Origin: Candidatus Moraniibacteriota bacterium
Lineage (GTDB): Bacteria; Patescibacteriota; Minisyncoccia; Moranbacterales; UBA1568
Direction of reading: 5' to 3'
Length of the DNA: 64,000 nt
Assembly (NCBI GenBank): GCA_052035095.1
Contig: JBPOHW010000003.1
Span: forward strand, 1,807-65,806
Program-made: the position numbers and the translations under genes
Part shown: positions 22,645 through 62,559 of the stretch, piece by piece
How positions within the stretch are numbered: the first letter of the stretch is position 1
Layout of the letters: every line of letters begins with the position of its first letter
The notes under the pieces: model-generated
Database searches by the model: none
Told to the model about the DNA's origin: nothing
Seen by the model: the letters and a program-made list of their open reading frames with translations, nothing else

Positions 22645-25212
22645 TTATTTCAGCGCTCGTTTCAAATATTTCCCCGTGTATGACTTCGGGTTGTTGGCAA
22701 CCTGTTCGGGCGTGCCCTTCCCGACGAGTCTCCCGCCGCCCGCGCCACCTTCGGGACCGATGTCGAGGACATAATCGGCGCTTTTCAAGATATCCATATT
22801 GTGTTCGATCGTCACGACCGTGTTTCCCTTCTCGACGAGCACATTGAGAATCTCGATCAACTTCTTCACGTCCTCGTAGTGAAGCCCGACAGTCGGCTCA
22901 TCCAAGAGGTAGAGCGTTCGGTGGAGATCGGGACGATAGAGCTCACTCGCGATTTTGACGCGCTGGGCTTCACCGCCGGAGAGCGTCGTCGCAGACTGTC
23001 CGAGTTCGAGATAGCCCAAGCCCACATCAAGAAGCGTCTTCAGCCGATCAGCGATCGCGGGAATATCCTTGAAAAAAGCGAATGCTTCTTCGACCGTCAT
23101 CTTTAGCACCTCGTGAATGTTTTTGTGTTTGCATTCGACTTCGAGCGTTTCTTTGGTGAAACGTTTTCCATTGCACACATCGCAGAGTACGTAGACCGTC
23201 GGAAGGAAATGCATCTCGACCGCGACCTGTCCGTGTCCCTCGCAGGCTTCGCACCGGCCACCTTTCACATTGAAAGAAAACCGCCCCGATCGCCACCCGC
23301 GCAGTCGCGCTTCGGCGGTCATCGCAAACATATCGCGAATATGCGTCCACATACCGGTATAGGTCGCCGGATTGGAGCGCGGCGTCCGACCGATCGGCGA
23401 CTGGTCGATCAATACCGCGCGGGAGAGATATTCCGTTCCCGAAAACGAAACGCAGTTCAGCGTCTTTGGACTTCGGTACCGCCGGTCGAGTCGCGCCTGC
23501 AAATTTTTGTAGAGAATTTCATAGAGAAACGACGATTTGCCCGAACCCGAGACACCCGTAATCGCAACGAGGCGTCCCAAGGGAATATCCGCATCCATAT
23601 TCTCGATATTAAACGCCTTCCCGCCGCGAATCTTGATTGCGCCTTTTTCTTTCATTCGTCGACGTTCCGGAACGGGAATCGATGTCTCACCGCGGAGATA
23701 CGAAAGCGTAAGCGACTGTGCCTTATTCACTTTCGCCGTGAGCAGTTCTTCGAGAAACCCCGAGACAACCACTTCGCCGCCATGGACGCCGGCCGCGGGA
23801 CCGATGTCTACGATATAGTCCGACGCGAAGATCGTGTCTTCATCGTGCTCGACCACGATGATCGTGTTGCCGAGATCGCGAAGATTTTTCAGTGTCTCGA
23901 TAAGCCGATCATTGTCCCGCGGGTGAAGTCCGATTGTCGGCTCGTCCAAAACGTAGAGCGCGCCCACCAAGCGGCTCCCGAGTTGGGAAGCAAGTCGAAT
24001 GCGTTGGGACTCGCCGCCCGAGAGCGTGTTGGCGCGCCGATCGAGCGAGAGGTAGTCGAGCCCGACATCAAGAAGAAATGAGAGGCGATTGCCGATTTCT
24101 TTGAGGACGACGGCGACGATTTCACGTTCCCGATCGGTGAGCGTCGCCGTATCGAGAAACCGTTTTGCCTCGCCGATCACCATACTCGAAAACTCCACGA
24201 TATTTTTCCCGGCAACCTTTACGTGGAGCGCCTCTTCACGCAATCGACTTCCCTTGCATACCGGACACGGATCATTCCCGAAAAAATGCTTCGTGCCGAG
24301 ACCGTTACACTCGGGACACGCGCCGTAGGGAGAATTGAACGAGAAGAGTCGCGGTTCAATTTCCGGATACGAAAAACCGTCATAGGGACACGCGTACTTC
24401 GACGAGAGGAGTTTTTCTTCGTCGCCAATCACGACTTTTACCAATCCTTCCGATTCTTCGAGCGACCGCTCGATCGCCTCACGCAGTCGCATCGCCGCGT
24501 CATCGCTCCACATCGAACTCTTCAATTCCGAAATTGAAATCGTATCGACGAGCATATCGATATCGTGCGCCTTGTACTTGGAAAGCACGACGCGCTCGCG
24601 CAAGCTTTTCATCTCGCCGTCGATCCGCGCTTCCGAAAATCCCTTTCCAAGATAATCATAAAGCAACTGATAGTACTCGCCCTTGCGCCCGCGCACAATG
24701 GGAGCGAAAATTTGGAGCGCATTATTCCCCGCGTGACTCGTCACATCGCTCGCGAGCGACGTGATAAATCCGATCATCTCGTCCGTCGAGAGCTTGGAAA
24801 TTTCCCGTCCGCATGTGAGGCAATGCGGTCGCCCGATCCGCGCGTAAAGGACGCGGAGGTAATCGTAAATCTCGGTAATGGTTGCCACGGTTGAACGCGG
24901 ATTGGACGATCGCGATTTCTGATCGATCGAGATCGCCGGCGAAAGCCCCTCAATCTCGTCCACGTCCGGCTTCTGCATTTGATTGAGGAACTGCCGCGCG
25001 TACGCCGAGAGCGACTCGACATAGCGCCGCTGCCCTTCGGCGAATATCGTATCGAACGCCAAAGAGGACTTCCCGCTTCCAGAGAGCCCCGTAAACACCG
25101 TCATTTTCCCCCGCGGAATCGAGACGGTTATATTTTTCAAATTGTGCGTCCGCGCCCCCTTCACCGTAATCCACTCCTGCGGCAAGCGCGACATTTCTTT
25201 CTTCTTTGACAT
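22645..25212 (-). CDS. uvrA: Excinuclease ABC subunit A
   Basis: Two ABC ATPase modules (GLSGSGKSSLAFDT, GVSGSGKSS), Cys-rich zinc modules, LSGGE signature motifs; start chosen at MSKKKEM. Confidence 0.9.
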   Translation of the reverse strand: MSKKKEMSRLPQEWITVKGARTHNLKNITVSIPRGKMTVFTGLSGSGKSSLAFDTIFAEGQRRYVESLSAYARQFLNQMQKPDVDEIEGLSPAISIDQKSRSSNPRSTVATITEIYDYLRVLYARIGRPHCLTCGREISKLSTDEMIGFITSLASDVTSHAGNNALQIFAPIVRGRKGEYYQLLYDYLGKGFSEARIDGEMKSLRERVVLSKYKAHDIDMLVDTISISELKSSMWSDDAAMRLREAIERSLEESEGLVKVVIGDEEKLLSSKYACPYDGFSYPEIEPRLFSFNSPYGACPECNGLGTKHFFGNDPCPVCKGSRLREEALHVKVAGKNIVEFSSMVIGEAKRFLDTATLTDREREIVAVVLKEIGNRLSFLLDVGLDYLSLDRRANTLSGGESQRIRLASQLGSRLVGALYVLDEPTIGLHPRDNDRLIETLKNLRDLGNTIIVVEHDEDTIFASDYIVDIGPAAGVHGGEVVVSGFLEELLTAKVNKAQSLTLSYLRGETSIPVPERRRMKEKGAIKIRGGKAFNIENMDADIPLGRLVAITGVSGSGKSSFLYEILYKNLQARLDRRYRSPKTLNCVSFSGTEYLSRAVLIDQSPIGRTPRSNPATYTGMWTHIRDMFAMTAEARLRGWRSGRFSFNVKGGRCEACEGHGQVAVEMHFLPTVYVLCDVCNGKRFTKETLEVECKHKNIHEVLKMTVEEAFAFFKDIPAIADRLKTLLDVGLGYLELGQSATTLSGGEAQRVKIASELYRPDLHRTLYLLDEPTVGLHYEDVKKLIEILNVLVEKGNTVVTIEHNMDILKSADYVLDIGPEGGAGGGRLVGKGTPEQVANNPKSYTGKYLKRALK

Positions 25213-25276
25213 ACAAAAACGCCATAAAAAACGCGCCACAACCGAATGAACAGTGTAGCGCGAAAATATAAAAGCA

Positions 25277-25534
25277 TCAACAGTCAACCCCTTCTATTTT
25301 CAATATTTCCCGTTTTCTCTCCGAGCCGCGATTGTAGCCGCCGGTTGTGCCGTCCTTTCGGACAACACGGTGGCACGGGATATTCGGATCGTAATTTTTG
25401 TTGAGAATATTCCCGACCGCGCGAAACGCGCGCGGACTGCCGGCACGCTCCGCCACTTCTTTGTACGTCATCGTTTCCCCTTTCGGGATCCGCGCAACAA
25501 CCAGACGCACACGATCAGCAAAGGTTTGCGTCAT
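25277..25534 (-). CDS. ogt: Methylated-DNA-protein-cysteine methyltransferase, stand-alone C-terminal domain (85 aa)
   Basis: YKEVAERAGSPRAFRAVGNILNKNYDPNIPCHRVVRKDGTTGGY contains the PCHRV alkyl-acceptor motif. Confidence 0.7.
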   Translation of the reverse strand: MTQTFADRVRLVVARIPKGETMTYKEVAERAGSPRAFRAVGNILNKNYDPNIPCHRVVRKDGTTGGYNRGSERKREILKIEGVDC

Positions 25535-35848: not shown

Positions 35849-36097
35849 AGCTCCCCCAGCCTACCCTATTTCCCGCTTTCGTCAAAGAAGACACCTCAAA
35901 AACAACTCAAAAAATCTCTCAATTTCATTTGACAGATCGCGAATTTCGGAGTATACTCAAGCCCGTAAGGGAGGAAAGGTTCCCGATTGGTTTTTTGGCG
36001 CTCGTTCGTCAAAGCCACTCAAAAAAACTTCGATTCTTCCCAAGTTCATTTCAAATTCAAACCATCTCCAAACAACAAGCAAGAAGGAGATTTGTTA

Positions 36098-36888
36098 TGC
36101 GCGCCATGACGAAAGAGACTTATGAAGGATCGTGCTTAAAAGGCAAGAATATGCCATCCTTCAAGAGAGAAGCGGAAATATGGAGTCAATTTTTTCAGGA
36201 GAAATATCCTGATATCCACAAAAGGGTTTGTTGGGAAGTGAATCAGCAATCACTGGAAGATCTCCTCGCTTTAGATTTGGGAGAAGAGAAGGGGTTCTGG
36301 AGACTTACTGTTGTCCCCAACCTACTCCAAGCATTCGGAGAAACTCAGGATCCGGTGTTTTTGGACCTTAGGTTTGCCGATATTTTCCTCTCTTACTTCT
36401 GCAAAATTTCCGGAATAAACTTTTCGAATTTTTGCCTGATGAAAAAGGAGATCCTTTTTAAGAGAGGGGATGGCTGGGACAATTTTTACCAAGTATGCCG
36501 AGAACAAGGAACTGGTCTTGTGGCGATCCTCGTCCAATATGGATATGTACGCCCCTGCAATGGTAATGACTTATGTTCCCTTCTTTCGTTTCCATCAGAG
36601 TTTCATGTCCCCTTCGGCTTGGAAGCTCTGATTGTATCCTCCAGCGGACCGCAAGTTGTTTGGGGCGGTATTCATGAAAGGAGAGTGATTGCAAGTGCCG
36701 GATCTAGAGCAAGCACCGGATTTGGAATTGATGGAAGATACCCTTATCCATGCCTAGATTATTGCGTACTCGCTAATGATCTAGCAGCGCTCTCTGTCTC
36801 CGAAGCGCTCGCACTGGAAACTGATGATAAAAGGCGACATGAAAAAGAGCAACGCATTGGCTTCATGACCGCCATAGCTTCGGCATAA
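36098..36888 (+). CDS. Hypothetical protein (orphan, Cys-rich)
   Basis: 263 aa from the ATG preceded by AAGGAGA; the longer ORF from 35929 lacks an RBS; no recognisable domain. Confidence 0.4.
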
Positions 36889-36931
36889 TACAAGGAAACG
36901 ACATGGAGAAGAACACTCCCGAATACATACA

Positions 36932-36964
36932 GAGGCTACTTGTTTATCAACAACAAGTAGCCTC
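36932..36964. terminator. Perfect 13-bp-stem hairpin between convergent genes; the stem embeds the TACTTGT-N9-ACAAGTA operator-like palindrome
   Basis: GAGGCTACTTGTT-TATCAAC-AACAAGTAGCCTC followed by TTAAAAATTT; lies 3' of both the + strand orphan gene and the - strand lexA-linked small ORF. Confidence 0.5.
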
Positions 36965-36989
36965 TTAAAAATTTCGAAAAAGAAAATTC

Positions 36990-37208
36990 CTACCTTTCCA
37001 TTTCCTTTATAGCGTCCCCTGCGCGTTTTTCGATATGATATGCCGGTGCATTTTGCGCCATATCAATAATATCTTTTGCCGCTTTCACGGTAAGAAGCGC
37101 CACAAGCGTACTCAGGAGGAGTACCAAAAGAAGCGAGAGGGTGCTCGAAATTTTCTGGTTGAATTCGAGAGAAATAACAATGCGAGCCATGCAAACAGTA
37201 TACCACAC
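36990..37208 (-). CDS. Small (72 aa) single-pass membrane protein, transcribed immediately downstream of lexA
   Basis: GTG start 17 nt after the lexA stop; hydrophobic core LSLLLVLLLSTLVALLTV. Confidence 0.4.
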   Translation of the reverse strand: MWYTVCMARIVISLEFNQKISSTLSLLLVLLLSTLVALLTVKAAKDIIDMAQNAPAYHIEKRAGDAIKEMER

Positions 37209-37225
37209 GTTTCTCTCGTCCGGAT

Positions 37226-37876
37226 TTAATTGAGCTTCAATACATCAATCACTTTCCCATTCAAAACAAAGTTATCCTCCTCGGTCAAGAAAATCGCCTT
37301 GTGTTTAGGGTCGGTTGACTCCGGGAGGAGCACGATATTCTTGCCGTCAACCGTGCGAAACGTCTTGACCGTGGCGAGCCCGTCGATCACCACCAGCACC
37401 TTGTCGCCTGTTTTGTATTCTTTGACATCGCCGTTTACCAAAACAAAGTCGCCATCGTCGATAGTCTTCCCCTCGACGAGCGCCTGATTCATGCTCGTCC
37501 CGGCAATCTGCACGGCGAACACATTTTTACTGCTCTTTACGATTTTCCGCGACACCTTGAGATACCCTTCAACATACTCATCGGCAAAGGAAAGCGCCAT
37601 CCCGGCATTGGCTGTGCCGAGAACCGGAATGTTGACAAACATATTGCTCGTCAATTCTTTGAGCTTGATCCCGCGATCCTCGCGCGTCCGTTCGATAAAC
37701 CCCTTGTCCTCAAGCTCGTTCAAGTACACGAAAAAACTCCGCAGACTCTTGAGACGAAGACCGAGCCGTCCCGACTCCTCCTGAAGCTCGCGCACCGTCG
37801 GCATCTTCCCCTTCTCCGAAAAAAACTCCTTGATCGCCTGGAGGACGATCTTCTGCTTCGGTGTCAAAATATTCAT
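37226..37876 (-). CDS. lexA: LexA repressor (S24 peptidase)
   Basis: N-terminal winged-HTH (KGKMPTVRELQEE), C-terminal Ser-Lys dyad region VQIAGTSM...VLVNGDVKEYKTGDKVLV. Confidence 0.85.
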   Translation of the reverse strand: MNILTPKQKIVLQAIKEFFSEKGKMPTVRELQEESGRLGLRLKSLRSFFVYLNELEDKGFIERTREDRGIKLKELTSNMFVNIPVLGTANAGMALSFADEYVEGYLKVSRKIVKSSKNVFAVQIAGTSMNQALVEGKTIDDGDFVLVNGDVKEYKTGDKVLVVIDGLATVKTFRTVDGKNIVLLPESTDPKHKAIFLTEEDNFVLNGKVIDVLKLN

Positions 37877-37888
37877 ACGCTTTTCGTT

Positions 37889-37935
37889 TACTTGTTATAC
37901 ATACACAAGTATACGAAAAAGAAAATCGCTGTCAA
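37889..37935 (-). promoter_or_regulatory. lexA promoter (TTGACA-16 nt-TATACT on the coding strand) with overlapping palindromic candidate LexA operator TACTTGT-N9-ACAAGTA
   Basis: -35 at 37930-37935 and -10 at 37908-37913 on the minus strand; the palindrome at 37889-37911 overlaps the -10 and lies 13-35 nt upstream of the ATG. Confidence 0.5.
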
Positions 37936-46922: not shown

Positions 46923-49004
46923 ATGCCTTCCCTTGAAACAACCATTGCCGATCTCCCAAGTGTCAGGAAGAATTTTCTTCCGAAATTCGCCGCGCTCGGC
47001 ATCCGCACCGTGCGTGATCTCTTGTTTCACATTCCCTCGCGCTACGAAGACTTTTCGGAAATCAAGAATATCGCCGAAGCGGTTGAAGGCGAAAAAACCA
47101 CCTTCGAAGGAACGATCGCTCCTTTCCGAGAAAAGAAAACATGGAAACGGCAGATGAAAATTTTTGAAACAGACTTGACCGATGATTCGGGAACGATTCG
47201 CCTCGTCTGGTTCAATCAGAAACTTGTCATTGATTCTCTCGCCCCTGGCACGCGTATTCGCGTTTCGGGCAAGGTTGGGAGCGATCAGGGCGGACTCGTT
47301 ATGATTTCCCCCGCTTTCGAGCGATCGACTCGCCGCCCGACCCACACGGCGCGCCTCGTCCCCGTCTACCCGGAAACCTACGGTCTCACCTCCAAATTCA
47401 TTCGCTGGCAAATACAAACGCTTTTTGAAAAAAAAGTGGGTGTGCCCGATCCTCTGCCGCCGGAACTCCTCGAAAAACTTCACCTTCCTTCACTTCCCAA
47501 AGCGCTCCGTATGCTCCACTTCCCCGCCACGATGGATGAAGTGGAAATCGCCCGGAAGCGCCTCGCCTTCGACGATATGTTCCTCGCGCAAATGAAAAGT
47601 CTCGAACTCAAATCGCTCTGGAGTCAAGAATCGGCGGTTTCTTTCCCGCTCGAGCATCATTTTTTGGAACGATTCGAAAACTCGCTCCCTTTCTCGCTTA
47701 CCGCCGCGCAAAAAAAAGCGGGGCAGGAAATTCTCGCCGATCTCGCCCAAACGAAACCGATGAACCGCCTCCTGAATGGCGACGTCGGCTCCGGCAAAAC
47801 GGTAGTTGCAGCGCTTTCGGCGCTTCGCGTCGCGCGAGGCGGATTCCAAACGGCGATCCTCGCCCCGACGGAAGTATTAGCCCGCCAGCACTACGAAACT
47901 CTCTCGAAACTATTCGCGCGCGAGCCCATTCAAATTGCGCTCCTCACGCGTTCGTATCAAACACTCGGTTCGGAAACCATCGTCAAAGAAACACTCAAAA
48001 ACACGCTCTCGTCCGGACTCGCGAGTATCGTAATCGGCACGCACGCTCTCCTCCAAGAGGACGTGTCTTTCAAAAATCTCGCCCTCGTCATCGTGGACGA
48101 ACAACACCGCTTCGGTGTCTCCCAACGCGCGAAACTTCAAGAGGCGACGACTCAAGCGAACGACGGTCTGCCAAATGCCATTCCCCACCTTCTCACCATG
48201 ACCGCGACCCCCATTCCACGCACGCTCGCGATCGCCTTTCTCGGTAATCTCGACATTTCCGTCCTCGACGAACTGCCCCGCAATCGGATTCCCATCATCA
48301 CCAAAATCGCCGCGACACGCGAGGCGCGAGAAACCATCTTTCGCTTCGCCAGGCAGGAAATAAAAAAAGGGCGGCAAGTTTTTGTCATCCTCCCCTTGGT
48401 CGAAGAGTCCTCCGCGCTCTCGGAAGTGAAAGCCGCCAAAACCGAACACGAAAAACTCTCCACAAAAGTCTTCCCCGAGTTCAGCGTCGGACTCCTCTAT
48501 GGAAAAATGAAATCCGCCGACAAAGAGAAGGTGATGCGAGATTTCAAAGACGGGAAAAGCGAAGTACTCGTCTCCACGTCCGTCGTCGAGGTGGGCGTCG
48601 ACGTTCCCAACGCGACCGTAATGATCATTGAGAATGCCGATCGTTTCGGACTCTCCCAACTCCACCAATTTCGCGGTCGCGTCGGCCGCGGCACAAGCGC
48701 GTCCTATTGTTTCCTCCTCCCCGGCAAAAACGGAACGAATGATCGTCTCGAGGCGCTCGTCACGAGCACGAATGGATTTTTCTTGGCGGAAAAAGACTTG
48801 GAACTCCGCGGTCCGGGCGCGTTCTTCGGTCTCCGCCAGTCCGGCCTCCCCGATATCGCAATGAGTCACCTCGGGAATCCCCGCCTCATCAAAATCTCCA
48901 AAGACGAAGCCGCCGCAATTCTCGAAAACGATCCCAAACTCACCCGCCACCCCCTCCTCCGCGCCGCCCTCGACAAAATGACCGAAGAGGTACATTTGGA
49001 ATAA
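46923..49004 (+). CDS. recG: ATP-dependent DNA helicase RecG
   Basis: Wedge/OB N-domain, helicase motifs GDVGSGKTVVA, VDEQHRFGV, C-terminal TRG motif region. Confidence 0.9.
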   Translation: MPSLETTIADLPSVRKNFLPKFAALGIRTVRDLLFHIPSRYEDFSEIKNIAEAVEGEKTTFEGTIAPFREKKTWKRQMKIFETDLTDDSGTIRLVWFNQKLVIDSLAPGTRIRVSGKVGSDQGGLVMISPAFERSTRRPTHTARLVPVYPETYGLTSKFIRWQIQTLFEKKVGVPDPLPPELLEKLHLPSLPKALRMLHFPATMDEVEIARKRLAFDDMFLAQMKSLELKSLWSQESAVSFPLEHHFLERFENSLPFSLTAAQKKAGQEILADLAQTKPMNRLLNGDVGSGKTVVAALSALRVARGGFQTAILAPTEVLARQHYETLSKLFAREPIQIALLTRSYQTLGSETIVKETLKNTLSSGLASIVIGTHALLQEDVSFKNLALVIVDEQHRFGVSQRAKLQEATTQANDGLPNAIPHLLTMTATPIPRTLAIAFLGNLDISVLDELPRNRIPIITKIAATREARETIFRFARQEIKKGRQVFVILPLVEESSALSEVKAAKTEHEKLSTKVFPEFSVGLLYGKMKSADKEKVMRDFKDGKSEVLVSTSVVEVGVDVPNATVMIIENADRFGLSQLHQFRGRVGRGTSASYCFLLPGKNGTNDRLEALVTSTNGFFLAEKDLELRGPGAFFGLRQSGLPDIAMSHLGNPRLIKISKDEAAAILENDPKLTRHPLLRAALDKMTEEVHLE

Positions 49005-61408: not shown

Positions 61409-61935
61409 TCATTGAAAATTTTCTCTCTATGATCTACGCCCTCGTTCGCGGATGGCTCGCCGGTATGGCGGCGGTTCTCGTTGAAATTCTCCTCGCGGCG
61501 ATATTCCTCGTTCAGGGTATTTCTCCGCGTACATTGACGGAAAATTTCTCCCCGACTCTTTCTTCCATAATTCTCGTCGCGTTTCTCGAGGAGAGTATGA
61601 AGCTCGCGGCGCTCCGCGGCATCAGTGATGAAACGACACCATTTTTCCGAAACGCGATCTTCAAAGGACTTCTCGTCGGACTCGGATTCGCCTTTTTCGA
61701 AGCATCGCTCAAAATACTCTTTCAAGGAGAAGACCTCTCCTATTCAGTCTCTCTCGGCGCGATAAGCGGTGGCGTGCTTCATATCGTAACCGGTGGCGTG
61801 CTCGGTTTCGCCTGGTTTTTTCGCACGCGAGGTCGAACGCCAACGCTCTTTTTGTTTCTCTTCTTCGTCGCGATTGTCCTCCATATCTTCTACAACACCT
61901 TTCTCTCTCCCGTTCTTTTTGAACGATTCTCCTAA
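61405..61935 (+). CDS. Polytopic membrane protein, PrsW/CPBP-like intramembrane protease family candidate
   Basis: EESMK, FAFFEAS and HIVTGGVLG motifs on successive TM helices; ATGA overlap with the valS stop. Confidence 0.4.
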   Translation: MIIENFLSMIYALVRGWLAGMAAVLVEILLAAIFLVQGISPRTLTENFSPTLSSIILVAFLEESMKLAALRGISDETTPFFRNAIFKGLLVGLGFAFFEASLKILFQGEDLSYSVSLGAISGGVLHIVTGGVLGFAWFFRTRGRTPTLFLFLFFVAIVLHIFYNTFLSPVLFERFS

Positions 61936-62013
61936 ACGGGTTCGTCTTGCGAAAAATTTTCTTTTTCGGTATACTGCGGTCAGTTTTAATTCGGCACTAT
62001 CTGGAAAAATTCT

Positions 62014-62559
62014 ATGACAAAACAAAAACAATCCTTTTTTGAGCGATTGACCGGGGCAAGAAACGTTGACGAGTCGCCGTCGCAGATTCCGATTTTTGAG
62101 GAATCATCCGAAGAGGTCATTGAGACCTATGGCGGTCCCCAAACATCGCCTCTGATGCGATCCACCATTCCGGAAGAGCCAGCATGGAGACCCTCTCCAG
62201 TGAATGACGAGTCCGGCGAAGAAAACGCCGAGGGACAACTCACTATAGATGTGTATCAGACGGATGAAGCGATTGTTATCAAGTCAACCATTGCTGGCGT
62301 CAAGCCTGAGGATCTCGATGTCGCCATCAACAATGACATGGTCACCATCAAGGGTGAACGAAAAAATGAAGAGGCGGTCACCGAAGGAAGCTACTATTAC
62401 CAAGAGTGCTATTGGGGTCCGTTCTCCCGATCCATTCTCCTGCCGGTCGATATCATCGCCGACAAATCGGAAGCATCCCTCAAAAACGGCATTCTAACGA
62501 TTCGACTTCCAAAAGCCGATACGACACGAATCAAGAAAATTCAAGTCCGCGGTTTCTGA
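62014..62559 (+). CDS. Hsp20/alpha-crystallin small heat-shock protein
   Basis: ACD motifs ...AIVIKSTIAGVKPEDLDVAINNDMVTIKGER...NGILTIRLPK. Confidence 0.85.
   Translation: MTKQKQSFFERLTGARNVDESPSQIPIFEESSEEVIETYGGPQTSPLMRSTIPEEPAWRPSPVNDESGEENAEGQLTIDVYQTDEAIVIKSTIAGVKPEDLDVAINNDMVTIKGERKNEEAVTEGSYYYQECYWGPFSRSILLPVDIIADKSEASLKNGILTIRLPKADTTRIKKIQVRGF

Follow-up and report, generated by a model that had tools for sequence, protein, structure and literature searches.

The palindrome shared by the lexA promoter and a downstream hairpin in a Candidatus Moraniibacteriota genome: a probable asymmetric LexA operator and a terminator stem

The stretch of DNA considered here (the window, 64,000 nucleotides (nt) of contig JBPOHW010000003.1 from a Candidatus Moraniibacteriota bacterium) carries a lexA gene and two copies of the palindrome TACTTGT-N9-ACAAGTA. 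One copy lies in the lexA promoter, the other in a hairpin beyond the small gene that follows lexA. Is this palindrome the SOS box of the lineage, that is, the site to which LexA binds, as a first-pass annotation of the sequence proposed? The comparison with orthologous loci points to a different answer. It is probable that copy 1 lies on a genuine autoregulatory operator of lexA, which would have the asymmetric layout TGTA(A/T)-N5-GTAAACA, and that copy 2 is the stem of a terminator. The elements on which this explanation turns are the following.

37226-37876, minus strand: lexA coding sequence, 216 amino acids (Pfam Peptidase_S24, 2.6e-19; LexA_DNA_bind, 2.6e-09)
37930-37935, minus strand: -35 hexamer TTGACA of the lexA promoter (promoter scan)
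37908-37913, minus strand: -10 hexamer TATACT of the lexA promoter (promoter scan), the source of TACT in the palindrome arm
37886-37901, minus strand: conserved operator core TGTAT-AACAA-GTAAAC (information content, matrix), a putative LexA site
37889-37911, both strands: palindrome copy 1, TACTTGTTATACATACACAAGTA (exact match)
36937-36959, both strands: palindrome copy 2, TACTTGTTTATCAACAACAAGTA (exact match), inner stem and loop of the terminator hairpin

By its sequence, the predicted product of lexA is a LexA repressor with an N-terminal DNA-binding domain, an S24 peptidase domain, a cleavage site and a dyad. Both Pfam domains exceed the cutoff, and the match to TIGR00498 reaches 108 bits, just below the cutoff of 110.95. 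The residues A91, G92, S128 and K171 are unchanged across 34 homologues and pair with the AG, GMSM and TVK positions of the E. coli LexA. In an alignment of the protein to solved LexA structures, the Ala-Gly cleavage site is kept, as are the Ser and Lys of the dyad. Homologues at 70-95% identity carry the names Candidatus Moranbacteria or Moraniibacteriota.

The orthologous loci were collected from two sources: 12 lexA loci came from genome contigs (single-protein query) and 72 from metagenome contigs, for which an alignment of 34 LexA proteins served as the query and which supplied the bulk of the sample. Together with the window, 639 kilobases (kb) of DNA centred on orthologous lexA genes were scanned. 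The 110 nt located 5' of each lexA were compared and subsequently brought into an anchored alignment of about 70 orthologous Moranbacteria promoters. Information content and covariation were computed on the 40 distinct promoter sequences among them.

It was found that these promoters share an element with the family consensus TGTAA-N5-GTAAACA. The common layout starts with a -35 hexamer TTGAC(A/G), present at the same location in most promoters, and continues with a spacer of about 17 nt and a -10 sequence, kept as (G)TATACT or TATTAT at alignment positions 1-7. This is followed by six variable nt, (A/G)TGTA(A/T), five variable nt and GTAAACA. In the window, the promoter TTGACA-16-TATACT gives 11 out of 12 matches in the promoter scan, and the core of the element is located 6 nt 3' of the -10. 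In the first half of the element the information content amounts to 2.0 bits for T14, 1.83 for G15, 1.28 for T16, 2.0 for A17 and 1.12 for A18; in the second half (G24, T25, A26, A27, A28, C29 and A30) it ranges from 1.45 to 2.0 bits. The distance from the motif to the -10 is fixed; that from GTAAACA to the ATG is variable, at 7-80 nt. Within the 110 nt, the motif with fixed spacing occurs in 53 of 71 lexA promoters, and a weight matrix built from alignment positions 12-31 finds most of the others further upstream.

This matrix, scanned over all 639 kb, matches the motif upstream of lexA in about 64 loci. The matches of at least 17 bits are all located 5' of lexA and on the lexA strand, with one exception (L005:390-409), which is discussed below. 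In the window, the lexA site (37884-37903, minus strand) scores 21.5 bits and is the sole strong match; the matches found there at lower thresholds (54916, 7454, 29566 and others) stay within the shuffle expectation. When the column profile is compared with itself, the similarity is greatest for a shift of 9 positions in direct orientation (4.86, against 1.75-3.53 at other offsets). The best description of the element is accordingly a pair of GTAA-type cores that point in the same direction.

Since the motif keeps a fixed distance from the -10 and is also present at unlinked promoters, it looks like the operator of a repressor. To our knowledge, autoregulation of LexA is near-universal, which makes LexA the most economical candidate for the binding protein. 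Position, conservation, promoter geometry and hairpin stability are direct observations, and so is the presence of the motif at further promoters; LexA is most likely the protein that binds there, and its binding would most likely repress the promoter. In the proposed mechanism, the two GTAA cores, 9 base pairs (bp) apart and 6 nt 3' of the -10, would lie over the expected transcription start, so that LexA bound at the operator would stand in the way of RNA polymerase. The repression would then be lifted once RecA stimulates LexA to cleave itself at the conserved Ala-Gly bond.

Some lexA leaders contain tandem 7-nt repeats between the motif and the ATG (L047:3233-3330; L053:3890-3990; L056, which equals L053). 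The repeat units are CAGTAAT (about 5 times), TTCTTAA (about 6 times) and GTAGCAT/GTAGTAT (many times).

What, then, is the palindrome? Both copies are exact at the coordinates listed, with identical arms and spacing, and copy 1 does overlap the -10 TATACT of the lexA promoter, as the first-pass annotation had it. It is located 13 nt upstream of the lexA ATG, where binding would repress. The claim of an operator at this promoter holds in so far as an operator-like element spans the region of the -10 and the start and is overlapped by copy 1; the palindrome itself is not the conserved unit. Of the approximately 70 orthologous promoters, that of L014 (LexA 92% identical) alone has it in exact form, and a pattern search beyond the window returned no other copy in the 639 kb of relatives. 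The closest relatives have TACTTAC...ATCAGTA (L001, LexA 95% identical) and TACTTCT...ATAAGTA (L013, LexA 94% identical) instead, and the inner bases of the arms vary even where LexA is 89-95% identical.

The make-up of the arms offers an explanation for their symmetry. The left arm consists of the TACT of the -10 and three bases that are freely variable in the window's own clade. The right arm consists of ACA and the AGTA of the conserved GTAAAC half. As TACT and AGTA are complementary, a partial dyad is present in most of these promoters by composition alone. The palindrome would accordingly have its origin in two unrelated pieces: the -10 TATACT would supply TACT and the promoter-distal repeat AAGTAAAC would supply AGTA, and in the window and in L014 the three intervening bases would additionally be complementary by chance. 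On this comparison, the proposed SOS box is mis-delimited, and the conserved putative operator is asymmetric and direct-repeat-like and shares bases with the palindrome only at the arm nearer to lexA.

The second copy is located between two convergent genes, in a region with the following features.

36931-36965, both strands: bidirectional intrinsic terminator hairpin (predicted from fold, scan and relatives), 14-bp stem and 7-nt loop
36097-36888, plus strand: convergent open reading frame (ORF), predicted, 263 amino acids from the ATG, ending 42 nt before the hairpin
36990-37190, minus strand: ORF of a small, hydrophobic membrane protein, 66 amino acids, MARIVISLEFNQKISSTLSLLLVLLLSTLVALL..., conserved in L001 and L013-L016
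37197-37205, minus strand: promoter-like element TGGTATACT of the small ORF, TGnTATACT, 6-8 nt before the ATG in L001 and L013-L016

The perfect stem that had been described between the convergent ORF and the small ORF is indeed present. It comprises 14 bp (36931-36944 paired with 36952-36965) and not 13, with 6 G-C pairs, and the convergent ORF starts at 36097 and not at 36098. The hairpin is located 24 nt past the stop of the small ORF and 42 nt past that of the convergent ORF. It folds at -29 kcal/mol (z -7.3) on the minus strand and at -28.7 kcal/mol (z -6.8) on the plus strand, and for the minus strand the scan also reports it as terminator-like. It is followed by weak U-tracts: GUAUGUAUUC on the minus strand, where the scan accepted GTATGTATTC (5 T in 8), and UUAAAAAUUU on the plus strand (TTAAAAATTT). 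The tails of the relatives are similarly moderate.

In L001, L013, L014, L015 and L016 a hairpin also follows the small ORF, each with a different stem sequence. The terminator of L001 has the outer stem AGAGGCTA in common with the window and an inner stem TCCG...CGGA. In L014, which has the palindrome in its lexA promoter, the terminator stem is unrelated; the palindrome is absent from the L001 and L014 terminators alike. A structure that is kept while its sequence varies fits a bidirectional intrinsic terminator. Copy 2 also lacks GTAAAC, as well as TGTA(A/T) at the right distance, and it scores -9.1 (plus) and -8.1 (minus) bits on the matrix, against 21.5 for the promoter site. The reading of copy 2 as a LexA operator is not upheld by these results: copy 2 is most likely part of a bidirectional intrinsic terminator, going by fold, position and comparison, and not a LexA site. 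The hairpin would end the transcripts of lexA and the small ORF as well as that of the convergent gene in a rho-independent manner. Copy 2 would be identical to copy 1 by coincidence, or at most as a local echo of the sequence that plays no part in LexA function. As in known bidirectional rho-independent terminators, a stable stem follows both stops on both strands and its position is kept in relatives. It differs from these in its weak U-tracts and in an inner stem that happens to equal the promoter palindrome.

Neither the convergent ORF (36097-36888) nor the 66-residue small ORF (36990-37190) gave a Pfam or NCBIfam match. The TGnTATACT close to the ATG of the small ORF suggests that it has a promoter of its own and that its mRNA has no leader or almost none. 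In L014, the small-ORF promoter TGGTATACTTGTATATATG (L014:4280-4300) repeats TATACTTGTATAT of the L014 lexA promoter, with TATACT and then TGT, and without the right palindrome arm.

Does the conserved element occur at other genes? The comparison covered the lexA neighbourhoods, the PemK/MazF-like family, and the uvrA and recG genes of the window. In seven of eight independent contexts without an adjacent lexA, the motif is located directly upstream of a PemK/MazF-like gene. In L005, it follows a TTGACA / TATTAT promoter and precedes a PemK/MazF-like gene of 132 amino acids. The loci with a solitary PemK/MazF-like gene (about 132 amino acids) and the motif are listed with the matrix score of the upstream site.

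L005:390-816, motif at 390-409 (the exception of at least 17 bits mentioned above)
L085:2937-3402, 13.7 bits
L087:2957-3420, 15.6 bits
L093:2475-2902, 27.3 bits
L095:2474-2905, 27.0 bits
L098:2475-2899, 27.1 bits
L100:2468-2899, 27.0 bits

No matrix match was found upstream of the mazF-like gene in L091. Each of the mazF-like loci with a match has only that one match of at least 10 bits. A TTGAC-type -35 precedes the motif in L093, L095, L098 and L100, and there is no clear -35/-10 pair in L085 and L087. Usually, no antitoxin gene is called next to the PemK/MazF-like gene. The solitary PemK/MazF-like gene appears to belong to the lexA regulon of Moranbacteria as its second member.

In some lexA loci, the motif-bearing promoter is followed by a cargo gene and only then by lexA.

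L024:2939-4001 and L060:2979-4001: Bro-N protein weakly similar to E. coli DinD
L048:1899-2440 and L055:929-1509: MazF-like gene before lexA
L032:3493-4001: NUDIX hydrolase before lexA

Taken as a whole, the behaviour of the motif fits the operator of a small regulon, most likely that of LexA.

Just 5' of lexA, the cargo gene is followed by AAAAAAATCGGACCCACCCTTGCGGATGAGTCCTCGGAGGCCGAAGCCATAAGTGAT, a conserved element that is about 60 nt long (L048:2330-2390, also in L024, L055, L072 and L083). On the opposite strand it would form a hairpin that has GCAA as its loop and a T-run after it. An Rfam search with this element from the cargo-bearing loci returned nothing relevant. By eye it had been considered as a hammerhead ribozyme; this was dropped, as the core is not kept in L024.

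Two genes in the window represent the classical SOS genes.

22645-25287, minus strand: uvrA (Pfam)
46923-49004, plus strand: recG (Pfam)

The first-pass annotation had expected the palindrome to be enriched upstream of DNA-repair genes. In pattern and matrix scans, neither the palindrome nor the TGTAA-N5-GTAAACA motif was found upstream of uvrA and recG in the window. A small ORF before uvrA (25288-25533, minus strand) resembles, by eye, the DNA-binding domain of methylated-DNA-protein-cysteine methyltransferase. Between this ORF and uvrA there is a TTGACT promoter-like site, with no LexA-type motif.

Several observations weigh against the combination of an asymmetric operator and a terminator stem, and they have to be set beside the alternatives. 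The window site is a weaker variant of the element (TGTAT, and a G after GTAAAC; 21.5 bits). The regulon comparison is limited to the lexA neighbourhoods and one other gene family, and among the classical SOS genes it covers uvrA and recG. The window holds seven perfect 7-N9-7 palindromes (shuffle average 3.7), and that two of these seven share their arms has a nominal p of about 0.003 by our own estimate, for a feature selected post hoc. An exact 13-nt repeat, CGAAAAAGAAAAT, adjoins both copies (36975-36987 and 37914-37926). Finally, the alignment pair 9-21 (window 37906/37894) is complementary in 19 of the 40 promoters against 9.7 expected, with all four pair types represented. Some of these points would suit the view that TACTTGT-N9-ACAAGTA is the SOS box of the lineage and that LexA dimers bind both the promoter and the terminator copy. 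The exact copies with the same spacing would speak for it, and so would the exact palindrome at the L014 lexA promoter and a different perfect palindrome in L022 (TACTTCTC-N7-GAGAAGTA) with the same centre. We nevertheless consider this view very unlikely. The palindrome is missing from the lexA promoters of the closest relatives and its terminator copy is not kept even in L014; the conserved TGTAA sits at the palindrome centre and the conserved GTAAAC reaches beyond the palindrome; and no copy stands 5' of uvrA or recG. Around the palindrome centre, covariation over the 40 promoters amounts to 258 complementary pairs against 253.9 expected from the composition of the columns (z = 0.68). By our own calculation from the pair frequencies, about 0.6 of the 40 promoters would be expected to be fully palindromic at the 7 pairs and three are, two of which may share ancestry. 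The excess at pair 9-21 was rejected as a dyad signal and attributed to kinship among the sequences, because an all-pairs control gave comparable p-values (at least 11 of 600 arbitrary column pairs at p <= 0.001). Further palindrome copies with up to two mismatches are absent from the window, and the sole match with three mismatches (54391) is at chance level (mean of 1.07 matches at up to three mismatches in shuffles). The sharing of arms was selected after the fact, and the match is treated as a coincidence.

The resemblance of the two regions may also be read as history. The terminator copy would then descend from promoter sequence that had been duplicated locally or transferred by gene conversion, and would be homologous to it and without function; this alternative appears very improbable. 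The arms, the adjoining CGAAAAAGAAAAT and the shared TGTATGTAT are found in both regions, and the local alignment of promoter and terminator scores 31 against a shuffle mean of 17.1 (standard deviation 2.4), a value reached by 1 of 1000 shuffles. However, the promoter aligns with a score of 33 to an unrelated region of the window (about 61881-62030), and extended homology was not adopted for this reason. Moreover, L001 also has the T-rich stretch and the outer stem AGAGGCTA, which makes them ancestral at the terminator, and the shared pieces are arranged in a different order in the two regions. The string CGAAAAAGAAAAT, which is T/A-rich and partly common to the L001 terminator, lies 16 nt beyond copy 2 and 3 nt beyond copy 1, in both cases towards higher coordinates. 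It is also highly improbable that, in this strain, LexA binds the promoter operator and the terminator palindrome 952 bp apart and brackets its own operon, in which case the pair may act as a repression loop or as a roadblock at the end of the convergent gene. If this were true, the common arms, the spacing and the 13-nt string would be functional and not coincidental. A last alternative accepts TGTAA-N5-GTAAACA as real and denies that it is a LexA site: it could belong to another regulator of lexA and the mazF-like gene, or be an element of the promoter or the initial transcript. The motif spans the position where transcription is expected to begin as well as the 5' leader, and a MazF-like toxin gene without an adjacent antitoxin in most loci would leave room for a regulator of the toxin-antitoxin type. 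This alternative is unlikely, as nearly every Moranbacteria lexA promoter carries the motif, with or without a mazF-like gene in the vicinity, and the motif keeps its distance to the -10 and not to the ATG. The partners in the operon are typical damage-response cargo (Bro-N/DinD-like, NUDIX), and the near-universal autoregulation of LexA, as established knowledge, argues in the same direction. A study of Patescibacteria is, in addition, cited among direct-repeat LexA motifs in PMC7739468.

How does the putative asymmetric operator compare to known LexA systems? The LexA box is CTGT-N8-ACAG in E. coli and GAAC-N4-GTTC in Gram-positive bacteria, and the TGTA core of the motif is similar to the CTGTAT half-site of E. 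coli. In common with these systems, the predicted operator lies at the -10 and start of lexA, the repressor combines S24 and winged-helix domains, and the motif recurs at other promoters. In contrast, the Moranbacteria element is asymmetric, with direct GTAA cores 9 bp apart in place of a palindrome, and the detectable regulon comprises lexA, the MazF-like gene and variable cargo, without uvrA. The head-to-tail arrangement of half-sites is shared with the GTTC-N7-GTTC motif of the Alphaproteobacteria, which differs in spacing and sequence. The SOS network of the Patescibacteria was reportedly the subject of a study by Sanchez-Osuna, Barbe and Erill (Environ Microbiol 2017).

The Balneolaeota motif TTACACATATTTTWTACATA, as given in PMC7739468, is likewise head-to-tail and its other strand holds TATGTA/TGTAA-type units; again, spacing and sequence differ. 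The premise that the LexA motif of the candidate phyla radiation had not been defined needs to be corrected, as Patescibacteria LexA work was published in 2017 and two proteins were validated according to Table S2 of PMC8565304. This table lists the experimentally validated LexA of Collierbacteria GW2011_GWB2_45_17 and Parcubacteria GW2011_GWA2_48_9, with Sanchez-Osuna et al. 2017 (PMID 28618189) as the source; in the supplements of PMC8565304, the validated proteins are listed without binding sites. A later paper from the same laboratory (PMC7739468) cites the 2017 study among direct-repeat LexA motifs. Going by this citation, the putative Moranbacteria operator is alike in being a direct repeat; the validated proteins belong to other genomes.

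Other arrangements are seen at more distant lexA loci. The lexA promoter of a distant member of the Patescibacteria (L007:9950-10000) has a candidate dyad TACGCTA-GT-TAGCGTA. In L009 and L011, a candidate direct repeat TGTACTAT-CC-TGTACTAT is located about 240 nt before the start of the tblastn match.

An autoregulated lexA promoter is in itself ordinary, and the value of the present analysis is mainly corrective: the SOS box that had been read as a dyad from one genome was the wrong one. For Candidatus Moranbacteria, the comparison yields a motif that can be put to use, TGTAA-N5-GTAAACA, whose two cores point in the same direction. The regulon appears to be very small: besides lexA it would consist of a solitary PemK/MazF-like gene and of variable genes inserted after the SOS promoter and ahead of lexA. 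Should binding assays confirm it, the motif would be a well-sampled addition to the known direct-repeat LexA motifs, and it would suggest a damage-induced growth arrest by a MazF-like protein in these episymbiotic bacteria with reduced genomes.

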